Shown here: positions 2,307-56,570 of the stretch, piece after piece | Layout of the letters: the number at the start of each line of letters is the position of its first letter | How positions within the stretch are numbered: position 1 is the stretch's first letter | NCBI GenBank assembly: GCA_947478175.1 | Contig: CANJUQ010000009.1 | Span: forward strand, 169-64,168 | Origin: Thiotrichales bacterium | Lineage (GTDB): Bacteria > Pseudomonadota > Gammaproteobacteria > Francisellales > CACEW01 | Reading direction: 5' to 3' | DNA: 64,000 bases | Program-made: the position numbers and the translations under genes | Notes under the pieces: model-generated | Database searches by the model: none | What the model saw: the letters and a program-made list of their open reading frames with translations, nothing else | Told to the model about the DNA's origin: nothing

Positions 2307-3127
2307 GCCCAGAAATTAATCTAGAAATTTTGCAGCCCCAAGTGGCCGGGATTTTTTATCCAGCTTCTCGAGAGAATTTATTAGAATTATTAAATAATTT
2401 TTTTGAAAATTGTCAGCTAGATAAAAAAAATTTTAATAAAAACCCAAAGGCCATTATTGCGCCCCATGGAGGATATTTGTTTTCCGGCAGTATCGCTGCT
2501 GAAGCGTTTTCAATACTTAAAGAAAATAAAAAGATCGATCAAGTGATTTTATTAGCGCCCGCTCACCAATTAGCTTTTATGGGCATTGCGACGCACCAAG
2601 CTAATTTTTTTTCAACGCCGTTGGGGGAAATTAAATTAAATAAAAATTTGATTGAGCGGGCGTTTAATATCCCAGAAGTATCTTATTTAGATTTAGCTTT
2701 TTTGAATGAGCACACGGTCGAAGTTATTTTGCCTTTTTTGCAGTTTACTTTAGGGGAAAACTTTACGTTGGCGCCATTTATTATTGGCCAATGTCTAACC
2801 CAGGGTGTTCTAGATTTATTAAATAATTTAATTTTAAACCCAGAAGAATCAGAAAAGACTTTGATCGTCGTTAGCTCTGATTTATCCCACTATCAGCCTT
2901 ATAGTATTGCGAAAGAATTAGACCAGCTGACTCAAGAGCAAATTACGAGACTTCAGTGGGATGGTTTGACCCAAGATGATGCTTGTGGAGATGTTGCGCT
3001 GAAAGCTTTGTTGCAATTAGCCGATCAGGAAAATTGGCGAGGGGAGTGCAAAGTCTTAAAAAACTCGGGAGATACCGTGGGTGAAAAAGACAAAGTAGTG
3101 GGCTACGGGGCGTTTAATTTTTTTTAA
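2303..3127 (+). CDS. MEMO1-like protein (AmmeMemoRadiSam system protein B family)
   Basis: 274 aa. The start overlaps the upstream stop (ATGA). Motifs AIIAPHGGYLFSG, NEHTVEV and SSDLSHY are typical of the Memo/COG1355 family. Confidence 0.7.
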   Translation: MSPEINLEILQPQVAGIFYPASRENLLELLNNFFENCQLDKKNFNKNPKAIIAPHGGYLFSGSIAAEAFSILKENKKIDQVILLAPAHQLAFMGIATHQANFFSTPLGEIKLNKNLIERAFNIPEVSYLDLAFLNEHTVEVILPFLQFTLGENFTLAPFIIGQCLTQGVLDLLNNLILNPEESEKTLIVVSSDLSHYQPYSIAKELDQLTQEQITRLQWDGLTQDDACGDVALKALLQLADQENWRGECKVLKNSGDTVGEKDKVVGYGAFNFF

Positions 3128-6497: not shown

Positions 6498-7274
6498 ATG
6501 TCAGGAGGAGGAGTGCCACCCAAGTTAGATTTTACTGCTTCAGCTGTACCAGTTGCGTTAAACGTAGCAACGCGGCCAGGGAGGAGGAGGGTAAGTTTGG
6601 CAGAATCATCAGCTCCTAACTGGGGAGTATTCTCGCTACCACCAAAACCAGCCTCGTCATGTGTACAACCTGCTACTTCGTTAGCGGCGTCAGGAGCACC
6701 ACTGCGACTAACAGAGATACAAGGAGCTGCAGAAGGGAAGGATTTGAGAGCTGAGCTATATGTTCCCCTTTGGGAGTTTATTCATACCAAAAAATTTCCC
6801 GAAGCTTATGTAATAATGCCACCATCAGAAGCAGCAGTAGAAAAGGCACCCGATTGTGAAAAAATGACACGCAATATGGTCAATAGTTATAGAAGGGCAA
6901 AAATCGCTGAGATAAAAGGCGCTGCTCCATCGGTATCCGAGGAATTGCCTGTCACGACTGAGCTAACTCAAGTGAGTACCGGTAAAACTTTAAGTTTTAA
7001 TAATTTTGTCGAAGTGCTGCTGATTTCTTTATGTCCAAAAGCGCAGTTCAAAATCCGCAGTGAAATTTTCTTGAAGCCAGACACTAGCGCTGTTTCTTTA
7101 GAAGAACCTGACATGACGGGCCACGCATATTCGGTTAAAAATTCGTTTGTTATACGCTGCGATTCCGTCCTTTTAGAACAGAAAATAAAAGAACACGTAG
7201 TTTGGAAAACAGGGCTTCTGAGTTCCGAACTTTTTCCAACTTACCTGCCTGATAAATCTCCTTATCGTCACTGA
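6498..7274 (+). CDS. orphan hypothetical protein with Pro/Ser/Ala-rich N-terminus
   Basis: A 258-aa ORF is obtained if ATG 6498 is used (AAGGA lies 9-14 nt upstream; the track start is TTG 6492). No competing ORF occurs on any frame. It is visibly more G+C-rich than the flanking pil genes. No family recognised. Confidence 0.5.
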   Translation: MSGGGVPPKLDFTASAVPVALNVATRPGRRRVSLAESSAPNWGVFSLPPKPASSCVQPATSLAASGAPLRLTEIQGAAEGKDLRAELYVPLWEFIHTKKFPEAYVIMPPSEAAVEKAPDCEKMTRNMVNSYRRAKIAEIKGAAPSVSEELPVTTELTQVSTGKTLSFNNFVEVLLISLCPKAQFKIRSEIFLKPDTSAVSLEEPDMTGHAYSVKNSFVIRCDSVLLEQKIKEHVVWKTGLLSSELFPTYLPDKSPYRH

Positions 7275-7300
7275 AACCCTGGATTCATCCAAAAAATAGG

Positions 7301-7610
7301 ACGGGACGAATACAAGGTTCAATGGCACTACCTTAAGGAATTTCTGACCTTAAAAGGCCTTTCTAATAGGGAAGGTGGAGGGGCGAACTTCATGTTCGTC
7401 CCGTCGCATTTCTTGGGTCAATCCACAGGGAATAAACCGACGAACCCCTTACGAACATTAGTCTGATTACCGCGTTTTTAAGGATTGTTTTACCAAGCAG
7501 CACTCGGGACGAACATGCAGTTCGCCCCTCCACCATCATTCTTGGAAATGGCAATCCAAAGCTCAAATTCCTTAAGGTAGTGCCATTGAACACGAGGTTC
7601 GCCCCTCCAT
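7301..7610. repeat. composite nested palindrome built from four REP-like units
   Basis: A perfect 27-nt inverted repeat lies at 7318-7344 / 7566-7592. A 30-nt inverted repeat with one mismatch lies at 7375-7404 / 7506-7535. A central 5+5 inverted repeat lies at 7413-7425 / 7483-7498. Each arm contains GG(G/A)CGAA(C/T)-N5-GTTC hairpin units. Confidence 0.8.
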
Positions 7611-7663
7611 GCCTTTAAGAGAGGCCTACCAATGAGATTTCCCCCTTAAAGCAGAGCCATCGG

Positions 7664-8965
7664 TTATGGGGTTAATGATGACAAAGACGTTGATGACGCT
7701 GAAAAGAGTGTCGGCGTGTTTGTTGTGGGTGTCCGTGATGGAAGAGTTTTTTGGGCTTGTGCCAAAAATGCTGTGGGTGAAGATTGAGCAGACAGGGACA
7801 ATGAAGCAAAAGGTGTGATTTCAGTGGTCTGATCACAATCAAAATATCCCCAGTTTTCATCTTTTTCCTCATCTGAAGAAGAGTCTGTTTCTTCTTCTGA
7901 TTCCACAGCTTCACCATCATAGATAAGCTCAAGAAGGCGCTGCGTTGTTTTGGAAGTTCGGAGCGGTTCGCTGGTTTGATCCGTCGGTACTGGCCTTGCA
8001 GCCGCAATTTCTTCTGTTTTTATTTCTGGATCGAGGCTCAATGATTTTGTAAATAGTTCAAGAGCAACCTGCATTTGAGTCGGCCGGAAATGAAAATAAT
8101 CCGCTGGGATATTGCGAGAGGGAAAATGCTTGAGATGTACTTTAAATTCAACATCACTTTTAGAGGAAACCAGGCTTGAAATGCAGACAATATGACCCAG
8201 CGCAATATTAAGTTTCATGAGCTGATTTTTTTCTTTCGAGTCTTCGTTTTCATGCACATAGGCTTCTAATAGCTTTGAAGCCAGTTGAGCAGTCTCAATA
8301 GCATAAGAACGAATGTACTCGCCCCAGATAGGCTCTTTGAAAGCCTCGGGTAATAAACTCAGGGAATAAGCGAAGTTAGCGAGAGAAGCCCCTATTTCAA
8401 AGCTGTTGTCGATGGTGAGAAAACCTGGGGCAGAAATTTTTGTTTCGGCCCAAAATAATTCAGCCGCCATACGAAAACAGTACAAGGCTTGGTAGTGATG
8501 AAAAAGTTGAGTCTTAATGTTGTATTGAATAGCGGGCTCAAGAGACGCTAATTTTTTATTGCTTGATTCTTTTTCAAGACAAGCTGTCATCGTACAAAGA
8601 GATTCTTCTATACGACGAACTTCTTTTTGGAGTGGCTGAGTGTTTTTCTCAAACTGTATGAGGATATTCCGATGCCCAACGCCTCTTAAATAATGAAATT
8701 GAGCATTGGTCTTAAACGGTAGCGCAGGTGTCCAATGGCGGGCGAGTTCAGCCATGCATCCGAATAAAGTGGGGGCGCCTAAATCTGAGAGTTTCAAGCT
8801 GATAGAGGCGGCATTCAAATGGGCTATGAAGTCTGGGTGAGAGAGGATCGGCTCTAATGTTTTTGTGCTCTCTAAAGTAGATCCGGATATTTCTTGTAAA
8901 GCAGGGTCTATTTGTTCCCATTTTTTTTCTGCTGTTGCGATAGATCCACTCATGATAAGACTCAC
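7664..8965 (-). CDS. orphan hypothetical protein, effector-like (acidic Ser/Glu block and Ser/Thr/Pro-rich C-terminus)
   Basis: 433-aa ORF with GGGAGTGAG upstream of the ATG. The central region looks helical. An acidic block (EAVESEEETDSSSDEEKDENW) is followed by an S/T/P-rich tail. No family recognised. Confidence 0.6.
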   Translation of the reverse strand: MSLIMSGSIATAEKKWEQIDPALQEISGSTLESTKTLEPILSHPDFIAHLNAASISLKLSDLGAPTLFGCMAELARHWTPALPFKTNAQFHYLRGVGHRNILIQFEKNTQPLQKEVRRIEESLCTMTACLEKESSNKKLASLEPAIQYNIKTQLFHHYQALYCFRMAAELFWAETKISAPGFLTIDNSFEIGASLANFAYSLSLLPEAFKEPIWGEYIRSYAIETAQLASKLLEAYVHENEDSKEKNQLMKLNIALGHIVCISSLVSSKSDVEFKVHLKHFPSRNIPADYFHFRPTQMQVALELFTKSLSLDPEIKTEEIAAARPVPTDQTSEPLRTSKTTQRLLELIYDGEAVESEEETDSSSDEEKDENWGYFDCDQTTEITPFASLSLSAQSSPTAFLAQAQKTLPSRTPTTNTPTLFSASSTSLSSLTP

Positions 8966-9183: not shown

Positions 9184-10080
9184 ATGAATCTAGAAAATCA
9201 GCAAATCATTGATGAATTTCTCGATGTTTTATGGCTTGAGTCAGGCGTATCTAAAAATACACTGGAGTCTTACCGTTTTGATCTTAAAGCCTTGGCCGAT
9301 TTTGCTGAGAAAAAACAAGCTAATTTAATTTCTGTGAATTTAATTTTATTAAAAGATTTTTTGGCTCACCGTTATCACCTAGGGCTCGCGGCGCGATCGA
9401 CTTCCCGAATGCTCGCGTCGATTCGGCGATTTTTTCGATGGTTATTAAATGATCACCGGATTCATAAAGATCCGTCGATTAGTCTTGAGAATCCAAAAGC
9501 TACCAAGCCATTGCCGTCGAGTCTTTCTGAAGAAGATGTGAATAAGCTTTTAGAAGCGCCGGATATTAATACAGAGATAGGTCTGAGAGATCGGGCCATG
9601 TTGGAAGTTTTATATGCAGCAGGGTTAAGGGTTTCAGAATTAATTAATCTAGATATGAACTCTATTAGTCTTTCTCAGGGCGTCGTTCGAGTGATGGGTA
9701 AGGGCAGCAAAGAGCGTTTAGTTCCCTTGGGTGACGAGGCGTTAGATTGGTTGAATAAATATCTGGACAATGCCCGGGCGAGTCTTTCTAGGGGATATCT
9801 TTCTGACACTGTTTTTTTATCCCAGCAGGGGCAGGTCATGACTCGGCAGGCTTTTTGGCATCGAATTAAAAAAATGGCGGAACAAGCCGGCATTCGAGCC
9901 CGAATTTCTCCTCATACTTTAAGACATGCTTTTGCAACGCATTTGTTAAACCATGGGGCAGATCTTCGAGTGGTTCAATTATTGCTGGGCCATAGCGATG
10001 TCGCGACGACGACGATTTATACCCATATTGCCAATGCTAGGTTGGAAGCTTTATATCAAGAGCATCACCCGAGGGCGTGA
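9184..10080 (+). CDS. xerD: site-specific tyrosine recombinase XerD
   Basis: 298 aa with an N-terminal SAM-like domain (LESGVSKNTLESYRFDL). The catalytic region carries R...HTLRHAFATHLL...LLGHSDVATTTIYTH. Confidence 0.9.
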   Translation: MNLENQQIIDEFLDVLWLESGVSKNTLESYRFDLKALADFAEKKQANLISVNLILLKDFLAHRYHLGLAARSTSRMLASIRRFFRWLLNDHRIHKDPSISLENPKATKPLPSSLSEEDVNKLLEAPDINTEIGLRDRAMLEVLYAAGLRVSELINLDMNSISLSQGVVRVMGKGSKERLVPLGDEALDWLNKYLDNARASLSRGYLSDTVFLSQQGQVMTRQAFWHRIKKMAEQAGIRARISPHTLRHAFATHLLNHGADLRVVQLLLGHSDVATTTIYTHIANARLEALYQEHHPRA

Positions 10081-20418: not shown

Positions 20419-20445
20419 GAGGGCGAATACAAGATTCGCCCCTAC
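20419..20445. repeat. REP singlet (GAGGGCGAAT-ACAAG-ATTCGCCCCTAC)
   Basis: An 8-bp GC-rich stem has the CCCCTAC (GTAGGGG) head. It lies in the 222-bp spacer between the adaptor and pump genes. Confidence 0.65.
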
Positions 20446-20548
20446 ACCCTTATTCTTAGAAGAGCCTGTCACAATCAAATCTTCGGTTGCCTCCCCCCTG
20501 CCTTTTGACTACCTTTAGGCGCTTTTTTTTACCCCGGATTTTTTATTC

Positions 20549-44964: not shown

Positions 44965-45119
44965 GTAGGGGCGCAATTCATTGCGCCCTCTGATCTGATG
45001 AACACGCTTTCTGATCTGACAAACGCGCCCTCTGATCTAATAAATGCATCTCAAGATATGGGGATAAATAAGAGTGCAATAGATAATAAAGATGAGGGCG
45101 CAATGAATTACGCCCCTAC
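44965..45119. repeat. REP inverted doublet (REPIN-like) abutting the RAYT start
   Basis: GTAGGGGCGCAATTCATTGCGCCCTC (44965-44990) and GAGGGCGCAATGAATTACGCCCCTAC (45094-45119) lie in inverted orientation. The doublet ends 11 nt before ATG 45131. Confidence 0.8.
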
Positions 45120-45130
45120 GGTATAACATC

Positions 45131-45751
45131 ATGAGCGACCGTATGTTTTACCATCGTCGTTCAATTCGACTGAAAGGCTATGATTATTCTCAGGCTGGTT
45201 CTTATTTTATTACGATATGTACTTATTACCGGGAATGTTTATTTGGAACTATTTCGAACAATGAAATGCAGTTAAATAATTGTGGAAAAATTGTGGAAAC
45301 TAGTTGGTTAAATATTCCCAATTATTTTTCAAATGTTGTTTTAGATAAATTTATTGTCATGCCCAATCATCTTCATGGGATTCTTTCAATAAAACCCACT
45401 GTAGGGGCGCAATTCATTGCGCCCTCTGATCTGATAAACGCATCCCCGGATATGGGGATAAATAAGAGTGCAATAGATAATAAACACGAGGGCGCAATAG
45501 ATAATAAAGACGAGGGCGCAATGAATTGCGCCCCTACGGTAGGTCATATAATCCGTGCCTTTAAAGCACGTACAACGAGCACTGTGAATCGTCAAAAAGG
45601 GAGCTATGGAATGCCGATTTGGCAACGTAATTACTATGAGAATATTGTTCGAGATGAAGCTGCTCTGGATAAAATTCGACAATATATTGAGTGTAACCCA
45701 GGAAAATGGGCCTTTGATAAAGATAATCCCAATAGTTCTATCTATTCATGA
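45131..45751 (+). CDS. REP-associated tyrosine transposase (RAYT, IS200/IS605 Y1 family) with in-frame REP-doublet insert
   Basis: The N-terminus RRSIRLKGYDYSQAGSYFITICT, HUH motif MPNHLHGIL and Tyr motif WQRNYYENIVRDE...YIECNP are typical of RAYT/COG1943. Residues 91-136 are encoded by a REP doublet. Confidence 0.85.
   Translation: MSDRMFYHRRSIRLKGYDYSQAGSYFITICTYYRECLFGTISNNEMQLNNCGKIVETSWLNIPNYFSNVVLDKFIVMPNHLHGILSIKPTVGAQFIAPSDLINASPDMGINKSAIDNKHEGAIDNKDEGAMNCAPTVGHIIRAFKARTTSTVNRQKGSYGMPIWQRNYYENIVRDEAALDKIRQYIECNPGKWAFDKDNPNSSIYS
45401..45537. repeat. REP inverted doublet inside the RAYT coding sequence
   Basis: The 5' REP is identical to 44965-44990. The perfect inverse GAGGGCGCAATGAATTGCGCCCCTAC lies at 45512-45537. 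The spacer core GATATGGGGATAAATAAGAGTGCAATAGATAATAAA is shared with the upstream doublet. Confidence 0.85.
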
Positions 45752-55238: not shown

Positions 55239-56063
55239 ATGCGTTCCCTCATGCGACCCTTTTTTATTTCGACGGCTTTAATATTCTCAGGAATACTAGC
55301 GGGCTGTAGCTATCTTTCTGATGGAGATCAGGCGCCTGTTTCAAGCATTCAAGCCCTAGGGTCTTCGGCCTATACGGTTAATCAGGGCGATACCATTGAA
55401 GGGGTGGCTGATGGATTTGGTGTGACAGTGGGGCAATTGGCGCTCTGGAACCATCTCAATCCGCCTTATAACTTAACGATTGGGCAAAAATTATGGGTGA
55501 AAAAACCGTCGTCAAACAATTCAGAAAATTATTTTTCCCAAAGTCCAGTTCGCTCTGAGCATGAAAAACAGGGGCCTTTATTACAAACCATGGAACCTGG
55601 AATTGTTTTGCCTTCGTCTTATCAGGGGCAACCAAAAATTCAGCCAAAAACTCAGCCTATCACTCAGGCCAGCCCAGCTAATCCAATCACCAGCCAATCT
55701 CCTGACATTAATTTGCCACAAATCAGCCCCTCTGGCTGGATCTGGCCAATGCAAGGCCATGTCAGCTCAGATCCTGATGGGGGCATTGATATCGAAACTC
55801 ATGAACATCCGAATGTCGTTGCTGCTAAAGCCGGTAAAGTGATTTACGTCGGTCCTGATGCCAATGGCGATGGCAAGATGATTATTATCGATCATGGCCA
55901 AGATTGGCTCAGTGCTTATGGCAATCTGGAGAGTATCCGCGTGAAAGAAGGAGCAGTCTTAGCGCGTGCTGATTCGGTGGGTCGAGTCAAAGATGTTTTG
56001 CATTTTGAGATTCGACAATCAGGAGATTCAGTCGATGTGTCGAAGTATTTGCCCAGTGCTTAA
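55239..56063 (+). CDS. nlpD: NlpD-like lipoprotein (LysM plus degenerate LytM/M23 domain)
   Basis: Lipobox LAGC, a LysM segment (YTVNQGDTIEGVADGFGVTVGQLALWN) and a Pro/Gln-rich linker. The C-terminal M23-like domain lacks the HxxxD and first HxH histidines (GGIDI, VLHFE). Confidence 0.85.
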   Translation: MRSLMRPFFISTALIFSGILAGCSYLSDGDQAPVSSIQALGSSAYTVNQGDTIEGVADGFGVTVGQLALWNHLNPPYNLTIGQKLWVKKPSSNNSENYFSQSPVRSEHEKQGPLLQTMEPGIVLPSSYQGQPKIQPKTQPITQASPANPITSQSPDINLPQISPSGWIWPMQGHVSSDPDGGIDIETHEHPNVVAAKAGKVIYVGPDANGDGKMIIIDHGQDWLSAYGNLESIRVKEGAVLARADSVGRVKDVLHFEIRQSGDSVDVSKYLPSA

Positions 56064-56096: not shown

Positions 56097-56570
56097 ATGA
56101 TTTTTAAAATAACCTTGGCGAGTGTTTCTGTTGGCATGACATCTGCTGTCATGCTGCCGGAATTACCTGTTTTGAGTCCTGAAGAAAAAGAAAAATTATT
56201 AATAGATTTAAATCAGTTTTGTGAGCCGTATGGGATTGTTTTTTTTCGTTCTTGTTTTGATTTTGTAGGGGCGGACCTGCGTGTCCGCCCGATTCAGCAG
56301 GGCGGACACACAGGTCCGCCCCTACGAGTGAGTTGTACAAATTTTAGGAAAGCCTGCGGTAGACCCTTAGGCAGTTTTTTACCGACTGGTTCTGATGGCG
56401 TGAAATTAAATGCCTGGATGACTGAGATCCAAATGTTCCTGCACCAGCATTCTATTAATCAAATTCGACGAGAACGGGGTGATCAGACCCTTGATATTTT
56501 ATGGTTCGAGAAAGTTTCTTTTTTTAAGAATTTATTGATCTGGACAAAGAAATTATGCAACCCCAAATAA
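56097..56570 (+). pseudogene. doubtful ORF or gene remnant interrupted by a REP doublet
   Basis: A 157-aa ORF whose residues ~56-76 (VGADLRVRPIQQGGHTGPPLR) are encoded by the REP doublet. Its 3' end overlaps recJ. The C-terminal part (LNAWMTEIQMFLHQHSINQIRRERGDQTLDILWF) resembles, from memory, an internal segment of a much longer conserved protein family. Confidence 0.3.
56265..56325. repeat. REP inverted doublet (REPIN-like), GGAC-stem variant
   Basis: GTAGGGGCGGACCTGCGTGTCCGCCC (56265-56290) and GGGCGGACACACAGGTCCGCCCCTAC (56300-56325) are mutual reverse complements with one mismatch. Confidence 0.8.

Follow-up and report, generated by a model that had tools for sequence, protein, structure and literature searches.

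Two convergent genes in the 64,000-nucleotide stretch of DNA analyzed here (hereafter, the window) are separated by a nested palindrome of approximately 310 bp, which raises the question of how such a structure originated and whether it serves any purpose at this position. The host, as assigned by NCBIfam equivalogs, is an uncultured gammaproteobacterium of approximately 40% GC that carries REPs and a RAYT-like gene; a Legionellales-like or Francisellales/Piscirickettsia-like affiliation would be a guess. The upstream gene (6498–7274, plus strand) encodes a 258-residue protein and stops 25 nt before a split REP, and the downstream gene (7664–8953, minus strand) encodes 429 residues; neither product was assigned to a Pfam family. 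The 429-residue protein found no homologue except itself among 5.8 billion proteins searched, and is a true orphan. The two stops are 389 nt apart, and the palindrome at 7299–7609 occupies this gap, in accordance with an earlier note on this DNA. Its arms contain a perfect 27-nt inverted repeat (7317–7343 and 7565–7591), which was matched in none of 100 shuffles of the sequence, and a 30-nt inverted repeat with one mismatch (7374–7403 and 7505–7534). Both repeats had been recognized in the earlier note, with coordinates one base too high. The central 5 + 5 pair also described there (CTTGG/CCAAG and AATCC/GGATT) does exist, but it is short, was not returned by the repeat search, and is indistinguishable from chance. 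Taken together, the arms at 7317–7403 and 7505–7591 are each 87 nt long, 80% complementary, and 101 nt apart, and the spacers that separate the repeats on the arms show a much lower mutual similarity than the repeats themselves. The folds predicted for the region greatly exceeded those of shuffled sequences in stability, with z-scores of −10.9 (plus strand) and −11.5 (minus strand) for RNA and −11.4 for DNA. Both strands were predicted to form one long hairpin, in which an outermost stem (7299–7310 with 7598–7609) was also present. The three layers can hence fold, according to these predictions, into either a long hairpin or a cruciform.

The comparisons described below indicate that the palindrome is probably a 269-bp IS4-type MITE that entered a REP hairpin at its apex. 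Four hairpin units had been counted at this locus previously; only two complete units of the form GGGGCGAAC-N5-GTTCGTCCC were found (7377–7403 and 7505–7531), and the outer "units" at 7299–7319 and 7589–7609 turned out to be the two halves of a single hairpin, which are held 269 bp apart. The left half-stem GGACGGGACG (7299–7308), which was read from the sequence and lies outside the duplication, is followed by the left copy of an 11-bp target-site duplication at the REP apex, AATACAAGGTT (7309–7319). On the opposite side, the right duplication copy AACACGAGGTT (7589–7599) is followed by the right half-stem CGCCCCTCCA (7600–7609). The search for target-site duplications, which had been suggested as a check in the earlier note, gave 11-bp flanks that match at 9 of 11 positions, with both differences being transitions. 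When the MITE and one duplication are deleted, the remaining GGACGGGACG-AAYACRAGGTT-CGCCCCTCCA is predicted to fold as a single REP-type hairpin, such that the reconstructed empty site consists of one REP hairpin, GGGACGAA-YACRAGG-TTCGCCCC.

The inserted segment (7320–7588) is 269 bp long and possesses both IS4-type terminal repeats and no transposase. Its left terminal inverted repeat CAATGGCACTACCTTAAGGAATTT (7320–7343, plus strand) shares its first 18 nt with the ends of IS4-family elements of approximately 1.54 kb, and the right one is AAATTCCTTAAGGTAGTGCCATTG (7565–7588, minus strand). These repeats are 24 nt long and perfect; the 27-nt repeat is composed of this transposon end and 3 nt of the quasi-palindromic duplication. 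Next to them are two 33-nt arm spacers that are loosely complementary to each other (7344–7376 on the left and 7532–7564 on the right), of which the right one starts with CACCATCATTCTTGGAA, resembling both an arm of the MITE in the related locus L125 and the extension of a REP at 20421. The internal REP unit U2 (7377–7403, plus strand) reads GGAG-GGGCGAAC-TTCAT-GTTCGTCC-CG, and U3 (7505–7531, minus strand) is its inverted copy with one mismatch in the loop. The 101-nt core between them (7404–7504) has no significant similarity to the core of the L125 MITE. The inverted repeats are concentric because each layer is itself an inverted pair, formed by the halves of the split REP, by the two ends of the transposon, and by the REPs inside it, respectively, and the arms are nearly perfect because the outer one is a transposase-binding end and the inner one a repeated REP unit. 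No credible gene was found inside the MITE; a 67-residue ORF that overlaps the core (7390–7593, minus strand) matched no Pfam family. An IS4 transposase query detected no transposase in the 64-kb window by tblastn (E ≤ 10), and the same window contained no other copy of the arms (up to 3 mismatches, blastn-short) and neither a second intact MITE nor a full-length element. The window accordingly holds one intact MITE copy and a possible decayed half at 20421–20495. The segment combines IS-type terminal repeats and a target duplication of the parental length with a small size and no transposase, which are features of a MITE. MITEs are also expected in several copies per genome, and related copies were here seen only in other contigs (L125, L132, L143, and L144). 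Of the origins considered in the earlier note, its second option, a MITE-like non-autonomous element, is the one best supported by the evidence.

An insertion sequence of the IS4 family has the terminal inverted repeat CAATGGCACTACCTTAAG, and this repeat was recognized in the outer arm. The search for further arm copies, which gave none in the window, succeeded outside it: exact copies of the 20-mer CTTAAGGTAGTGCCATTGAA, which forms the core of both outer arms, were present in 40 stretches of metagenome sequence and in a single GTDB contig (L011), and these cover only a subset of insertions since the 20-mer contains two bases (AA) of the duplication. The same REPs adjoin CTTAAGGTAGTGCCATTGAA in the GTDB contig. 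Viral contigs gave zero matches to the 20-mer, and a search of plasmid DNA gave nothing for the MITE. In nearly all matches, the conservation stops abruptly at ...CCATTG(AA), and the sequence beyond this point is different in every match, which is the signature of a mobile-element end. Paired inverted repeats separated by 1531–1577 bp were located in 12 loci (11 distinct, as L127 and L145 represent one locus). A tblastn match to the transposase of L149 was obtained for 11 of these 12 loci and for L147, with identities of 40–81% apart from L149 itself. The transposase ORF between the repeats encodes 466 (L149) or 467 residues (L161 and L142), and the L149-type protein matched NF033592 "IS4 family transposase" with 186.9 bits (cut-off 115) and PF01609 with 62 bits (E = 8e-17). 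Its Y-2-R-3-E-6-K motif is legible in IYERRWDVEINLKSIK. Among annotated sequences, it is most closely related to genes labeled "IS4 family transposase" from Piscirickettsia plasmids (52% identity). Members of the IS4 subgroup are 1400–1650 bp long, have ends of the form -AATR--------WTW, and create direct repeats of 10–13 bp (De Palmenaer et al. 2008, PMC2266710). The autonomous relatives agree with this subgroup in all respects examined, that is, in the YREK motif of the DDE transposase, the length of 1531–1577 bp, the ends CAATG...TTA (CAATGGCACTACCTTAAG, with A2 A3 T4 G5 and T14 T15 A16), and the 11-bp duplication. The MITE of the window differs from the subgroup in that it has the ends alone.

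Furthermore, short derivatives in which the repeats are just 82–240 bp apart were found in at least four other loci (L125, L129, L133, and L156), and these are MITEs as well; three further short pairs (109–259 bp) have mismatched left repeats. The 11-bp duplication is identical at all positions in five elements (L125, L142, L149, L151, and L160), at 10 of 11 in L133 and L156, and at 9 of 11 in three elements including that of the window. The full-length elements place the true ends at CAATGG...CCATTG with a duplication of 11 bp. A different partition, in which the whole 27-nt repeat is the transposon end and the duplication is 5 bp (ACAAG/ACGAG) or 7 bp (TACAAGG/CACGAGG), was rejected, as the full-length elements also duplicate the bases that adjoin the 7-mer. 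One observation counts against the insertion model: the duplication copies of the window match at only 9 of 11 positions despite perfect 24-nt repeats, which is not predicted by uniform neutral decay. This pattern could be accounted for if a copy had recombined with one located at another REP, if repair had taken place inside the hairpin, or if mutations had been confined to the loop.

The hairpin unit of this locus, GGGGCGAAy-N5-rTTCGyCC, occurs in the window at 7377–7403, 7505–7531, and 20421–20445, and in the split form at 7299–7319/7589–7609. The copy at 20421–20445, GTAGGGGCGAATCTTGTATTCGCCC, is tagged with GTAG (20442–20445); it was missed by the initial REP pattern GGAGGGGCGAAC, which was too strict, and recovered by a looser search. 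The three units at 7299–7609 carry GGAG, which is absent from the variant list in PMC3733652, and GTAG is present in most REP copies of the related loci. Among the related loci, L011, L125, L143, and L144 contain 2–5 copies of the unit each, and L132 has only a REP half beside the terminal repeat. As imperfect palindromes of 20–40 bp that are repeated and mostly intergenic, the hairpins qualify as REPs. The term "REP-like" used for them previously was upheld by the GTAG-tagged copy at 20421–20445 and by the repeated copies in related contigs; a RAYT-like gene is also present in the window (45131–45751). In GTDB genomes, hairpins of the form GGAGGGGCGAAC-N4-6-RTTCGYCC were detected in more than 118 stretches from many phyla, frequently more than once in the same genome and in many cases with CTAC or GTAC after them; among the matches listed, one was a related contig (L011). 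These properties correspond to those given for GTAG-tagged REPs, whose location is mainly between genes that are convergent or co-directional (PMC3733652). A literature search with the hairpin sequence yielded primers and unrelated text only.

Two further classes of GTAG-tagged hairpins exist in the window, which comprise four copies at 44965–45537 and a head-to-head pair at 56265–56325. The RAYT-like ORF at 45131–45751 matched PF01797 (IS200-like Y1 transposase domain) with 27.8 bits (cut-off 23), and its best NCBIfam match was NF047646 "REP-associated tyrosine transposase" with 55.7 bits, below the cut-off of 80. REPs of a different class (GGGGCGCAAT..ATTGCGCCC) lie on either side of this ORF and also interrupt it; the ORF carries an in-frame REP doublet and a 46-residue insert. 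It is located 38 kb from the MITE. U2 and U3 are an inverted doublet with a separation of 101 nt, and the other doublets of this class likewise were seen inside MITEs (L125, L143, and L144); no free doublet outside a MITE was found in the window or the related loci. The 26 nt that continue the REP at 20421 show 98% identity with the right arm of the MITE in L125; the solo REPs of L011 have no such extension. The segment 20421–20495 may be a decayed half-copy of the MITE.

Related contigs enabled us to compare the position of the terminal repeat relative to the REP. In L125 (JGI Ga0214919), a 240-bp element with the layout repeat-REP-core-REP-repeat lies downstream of a 464-residue ORF, and its perfect duplication AATCTTGTATT is located at the apex of GTAGGGGCGAA|TCTTGTA|TTCGCCC. 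L132, L143 (the L011 locus), and L144 have one recognizable terminal repeat each, which adjoins a REP half at the identical position. The terminal repeat thus abuts a REP apex in all four loci examined of this related organism of approximately 40% GC, with a perfect duplication in one of them. In L143 and L144, the REP has opposite orientations with respect to one particular MITE end, which indicates independent insertions rather than copies of one fixed composite. Outside the repeats, these contigs share little DNA with the window except for one conserved gene with 68% nucleotide identity, and, as judged from their sequences, they belong to a related but different organism. The MITEs of the window and L125 have their ends, REP units, and short arm motifs in common. 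Since the two cores are not significantly similar, the relatedness of the family rests on these three elements. From the five loci, we infer that the REP apex (GAA-N7-TTC) is the preferred target in this lineage. Full-length relatives in other lineages occupy non-REP sites, and the preference may for this reason reflect either the local structure or a lineage-specific transposase.

The following history is consistent with these observations. The original 3′ intergenic region would have been approximately 109 nt long and would have contained the single REP hairpin reconstructed above. An intergenic region of this length with one REP is the usual setting of REPs. The hairpin apex would then have received a 269-bp non-autonomous element derived from an insertion sequence of the IS4 subgroup (IS4 family), an event that is inferred from the duplication, and this insertion would have duplicated 11 bp (AAYACRAGGTT) and left half a REP on either side. 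In IS4-family elements such as Tn5 and Tn10, the transposase recognizes the terminal repeats, and transposition follows a cut-and-paste mechanism. By analogy with these systems, an IS4-type transposase made elsewhere would have acted in trans by binding the repeats, excising the element, and reinserting it with a staggered cut, from which the 11-bp duplication would result.

A quite different reading regards the locus as a pure REP cluster (REPIN or BIME) that was built and spread by a RAYT tyrosine transposase, where the 27-nt arm would belong to an extended REP-associated repeat without participation of any IS4 element. The hairpins are genuine GTAG-type REPs, U2 and U3 form a REPIN-like inverted doublet, a RAYT-like gene is present at 45131–45751, and REPs typically lie between convergent genes (PMC3733652), all of which would suit this reading. 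We consider it highly improbable, however, as the arm is the terminal repeat of elements with an IS4 DDE transposase and 11-bp duplications, which exist in lineages where no REP adjoins it; solo REPs of the same family are moreover present without the arm, and the REPs on both sides of the RAYT-like gene are of another class (GGGGCGCAAT..ATTGCGCCC). The REP halves and MITE might alternatively be mobile as one unit, which a RAYT would copy whole in the folded-back form, where the two half-stems meet, as if it were a REP with a giant loop. Such a unit is favored by the stem 7299–7310/7598–7609 of the predicted folds and by the fact that all terminal repeats seen in this lineage adjoin a REP half. 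The REP halves beside the repeat nevertheless vary in sequence between loci, their orientation to the same MITE end differs between L143 and L144, and the duplication in L125 is clean and 11 bp long, which conforms to a DDE insertion, so that only a very small chance is left for this idea.

The earlier note gave priority to a REP composite that acts as a terminator or mRNA stabilizer. This part of its interpretation was not sustained, because the 27-nt arm is an IS4-family terminal repeat and not a REP feature, no stem with a T-run lies between the two stops, and no Rfam match was obtained. Specifically, no intrinsic terminator (a G+C-rich stem-loop followed by a T-run) was detected on either strand of 7275–7663, and the only two matches to the terminator pattern lie inside the downstream ORF (7694–7717). 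Rfam 15 gave no match in the region at the gathering score or at E ≤ 1, and none in 20 related loci; ARAGORN found no tRNA or tmRNA in the region. It may still be argued that the structure is maintained as a bidirectional terminator, 3′ end stabilizer, or structured RNA and that its transposon origin is incidental, since the predicted hairpins are very stable on both strands, the G-T pairs of the REP stems fit RNA pairing, and REPs have been reported to affect mRNA 3′ ends (PMC3733652). In addition to the negative searches, the core is not conserved between MITE copies and the same type of element occurs at unrelated loci, which makes such a role highly improbable. An assembly artifact, such as a collapsed or chimeric inverted duplication produced by the metagenome assembler, has scarcely any likelihood. 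The Logan contigs of three runs do end inside the MITE, at 7408 and 7547, and the bases 7409–7546 were read only in the 64.7-kb ENA metagenome contig (ERZ27277814). On the other hand, the arms are imperfect, being just 80% complementary, and surround a unique 101-nt center; both junctions with the flanking genes are reproduced with 100% identity in the independent runs (left to 7408 and right from 7547), and the same layout was found in L125, which comes from a different project. A reasonable guess is that the Logan contigs end at 7408 and 7547 through branching of the assembly graph by other copies of the REP/MITE module. A XerC/D-like recombinase gene at 9184–10080 led us to consider an invertible switch, which was rejected since the Logan ends at 7408 and 7547 do not fall on the repeat boundaries expected of an inversion.

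The IS4-type MITE in a REP apex, which remains our preferred reading, may be compared with known systems. IS1397 and ISKpn1 (IS3 family) and IS621 and ISPpu9 (IS110 family) insert at a fixed position within REP palindromes. They differ from the present case in transposase family and chemistry and create a short duplication or none, whereas the 11-bp duplication found here spans the whole apex. The closer parallel is ISRm22 of Sinorhizobium meliloti, an IS4-family element of which 10 of 10 copies are inside REPs (Tobes & Pareja 2006, PMC1525189). It can be likened to the element of the window by family and by REP siting, as all terminal repeats seen in the REP-bearing lineage are located at a REP apex. 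Unlike the autonomous ISRm22, the MITE of the window is a 269-bp derivative without transposase, and its full-length relatives in other lineages lie outside REPs. With bacterial MITEs such as Correia elements, RPEs, and Nezha, it shares the small size, terminal repeats in common with an IS, target duplication, noncoding nature, intergenic location, and long hairpin; it differs from them in general by its cargo, an inverted REP pair, and by its target, a same-family REP that was entered at the apex, and these two features together give the three-layer palindrome. Its hairpins resemble GTAG REPs and REPINs (Di Nocera 2013, PMC3733652; Bertels & Rainey 2011, PMC3116915) in that they are imperfect palindromes of approximately 22–27 bp with G-T stem pairs, carry GTAG in the 20421–20445 copy and in related contigs, form inverted doublets, lie between convergent genes, and are accompanied by a RAYT-like gene in the window. 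They depart from these systems in the GGAG of this locus, in the enclosure of the doublet by IS4-type terminal repeats, and in the position of the RAYT-like gene beside another REP class. MITEs are already well described, and the same is true of insertion sequences that target REPs, one of which is an IS4-family element; a MITE that carries a REP doublet as cargo and sits inside a REP of the same family, with a three-layer palindrome as the result, is somewhat unusual.

A bolder extension would regard this element as a chimera of two transposition systems, that is, an IS4-type MITE with a REP-doublet cargo that lands preferentially in same-family REPs, at their apex (GAA-N7-TTC), such that a DDE transposase and an HUH RAYT exploit one hairpin family. 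We regard this extension as speculative and rather doubtful. If it were true, two new hairpins would become available as targets with each insertion, and nested palindromes would build up in the manner of Russian dolls. With regard to the convergent genes, the long predicted hairpin could possibly affect the 3′ ends of both transcripts as a by-product, and any effects of the locus, such as slowing of 3′ exonucleases or pausing of polymerases, would be by-products of the predicted structure. No support was found for a dedicated function, and the palindrome represents selfish DNA of an ordinary kind, not a novel regulatory device. For practical purposes, CAATGGCACTACCTTAAG and the REP unit can be used as annotation markers in related metagenome-assembled genomes, where they can flag likely contig break points. 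The striking 310-bp palindrome is sufficiently explained by known mechanisms as three nested inverted pairs, which consist of the halves of one REP, the ends of a transposon, and the REPs inside it, and this is a caution against reading such structures as regulatory devices or assembly errors. The locus provides a clean case in which an IS4-family MITE has targeted a REP hairpin at its apex and is flanked by an 11-bp duplication, and it extends this setting to an uncultured gammaproteobacterium of approximately 40% GC and to a MITE with REP cargo.

The MITE at 7320-7588 is bordered by two convergent genes, 6498-7274 (+) and 7664-8953 (-), whose products of 258 and 429 aa both begin with MSG. 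The 258-aa protein matched no Pfam family, and a search of 5.8 billion proteins returned no homologue of the 429-aa protein except itself. Directly upstream of this gene pair lie three genes with matches to the Pfam families Pilin, T2SSE, and T2SSF. Several Logan contigs ended within the MITE: those of ERR3761214 and ERR3761218 stopped at window position 7408, and that of SRR6787039 stopped at 7547. Our guess is that these ends were generated by repeat-induced branching of the assembly graph.

Other REP copies were located elsewhere in the window. At 20421-20495 lies a GTAG-tagged REP that belongs to the hairpin class of the MITE, together with an extension; the 26 nt after the REP show 98% identity to the right arm of the 240-bp MITE on the JGI contig Ga0214919 (L125), an element that shares the layout of the MITE at 7320-7588. 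Beyond these 26 nt, a faint likeness to the terminal repeat was observed. The segment 20421-20495 could thus represent the decayed half of a MITE. Another GTAG-tagged REP class, the third in the window (GTAGGGGCGGACCTGCGTGTCCGCCC), occurs as a head-to-head doublet at 56265-56325, in the interval between 55239-56063 and recJ; a putative ORF of 157 aa (56097-56570) overlaps this interval.

The region 44965-45751 contains a RAYT-like gene of 206 aa (45131-45751). In profile searches, its product scored above the cut-off for PF01797; REP-associated tyrosine transposase was its best NCBIfam match, but below the cut-off. A REP doublet of approximately 137 nt (45401-45537) is located in frame inside this gene, separating the HUH motif of the protein from its tyrosine region. 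Without the 46 inserted residues, the protein matched the family models better and in a single contiguous stretch. Another doublet of this REP class (GTAGGGGCGCAATTCATTGCGCCC) directly precedes the gene, at 44965-45119. In the GTDB MAG contig CAMCUU010000049.1 (L011), a putative 322-aa ORF includes a REP copy (3036-3060) that is read through in frame. This contig, titled "Francisella tularensis subsp. holarctica", has 40% GC and carries ORFs that were judged ankyrin-repeat-like by reading their translations. It spans the same locus as the JGI metagenome contig Ga0214919_10000464 (L143), so that its organism label looks doubtful.

GTDB genomes were further scanned with the pattern GGAGGGGCGAAC-N4-6-RTTCGYCC (stretches L006-L123). 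Among the matches listed, more than 118 stretches contained this hairpin. They came from many phyla, and the groups represented include Nostocales, Leptolyngbyaceae, Chloroflexales, Armatimonadota, Acidobacteriota, and Tepidisphaeraceae; several MAGs carried multiple copies. Its recurrent loops were GGCC or CTTGTG, and in cyanobacteria it constitutes the core of longer repeated units.
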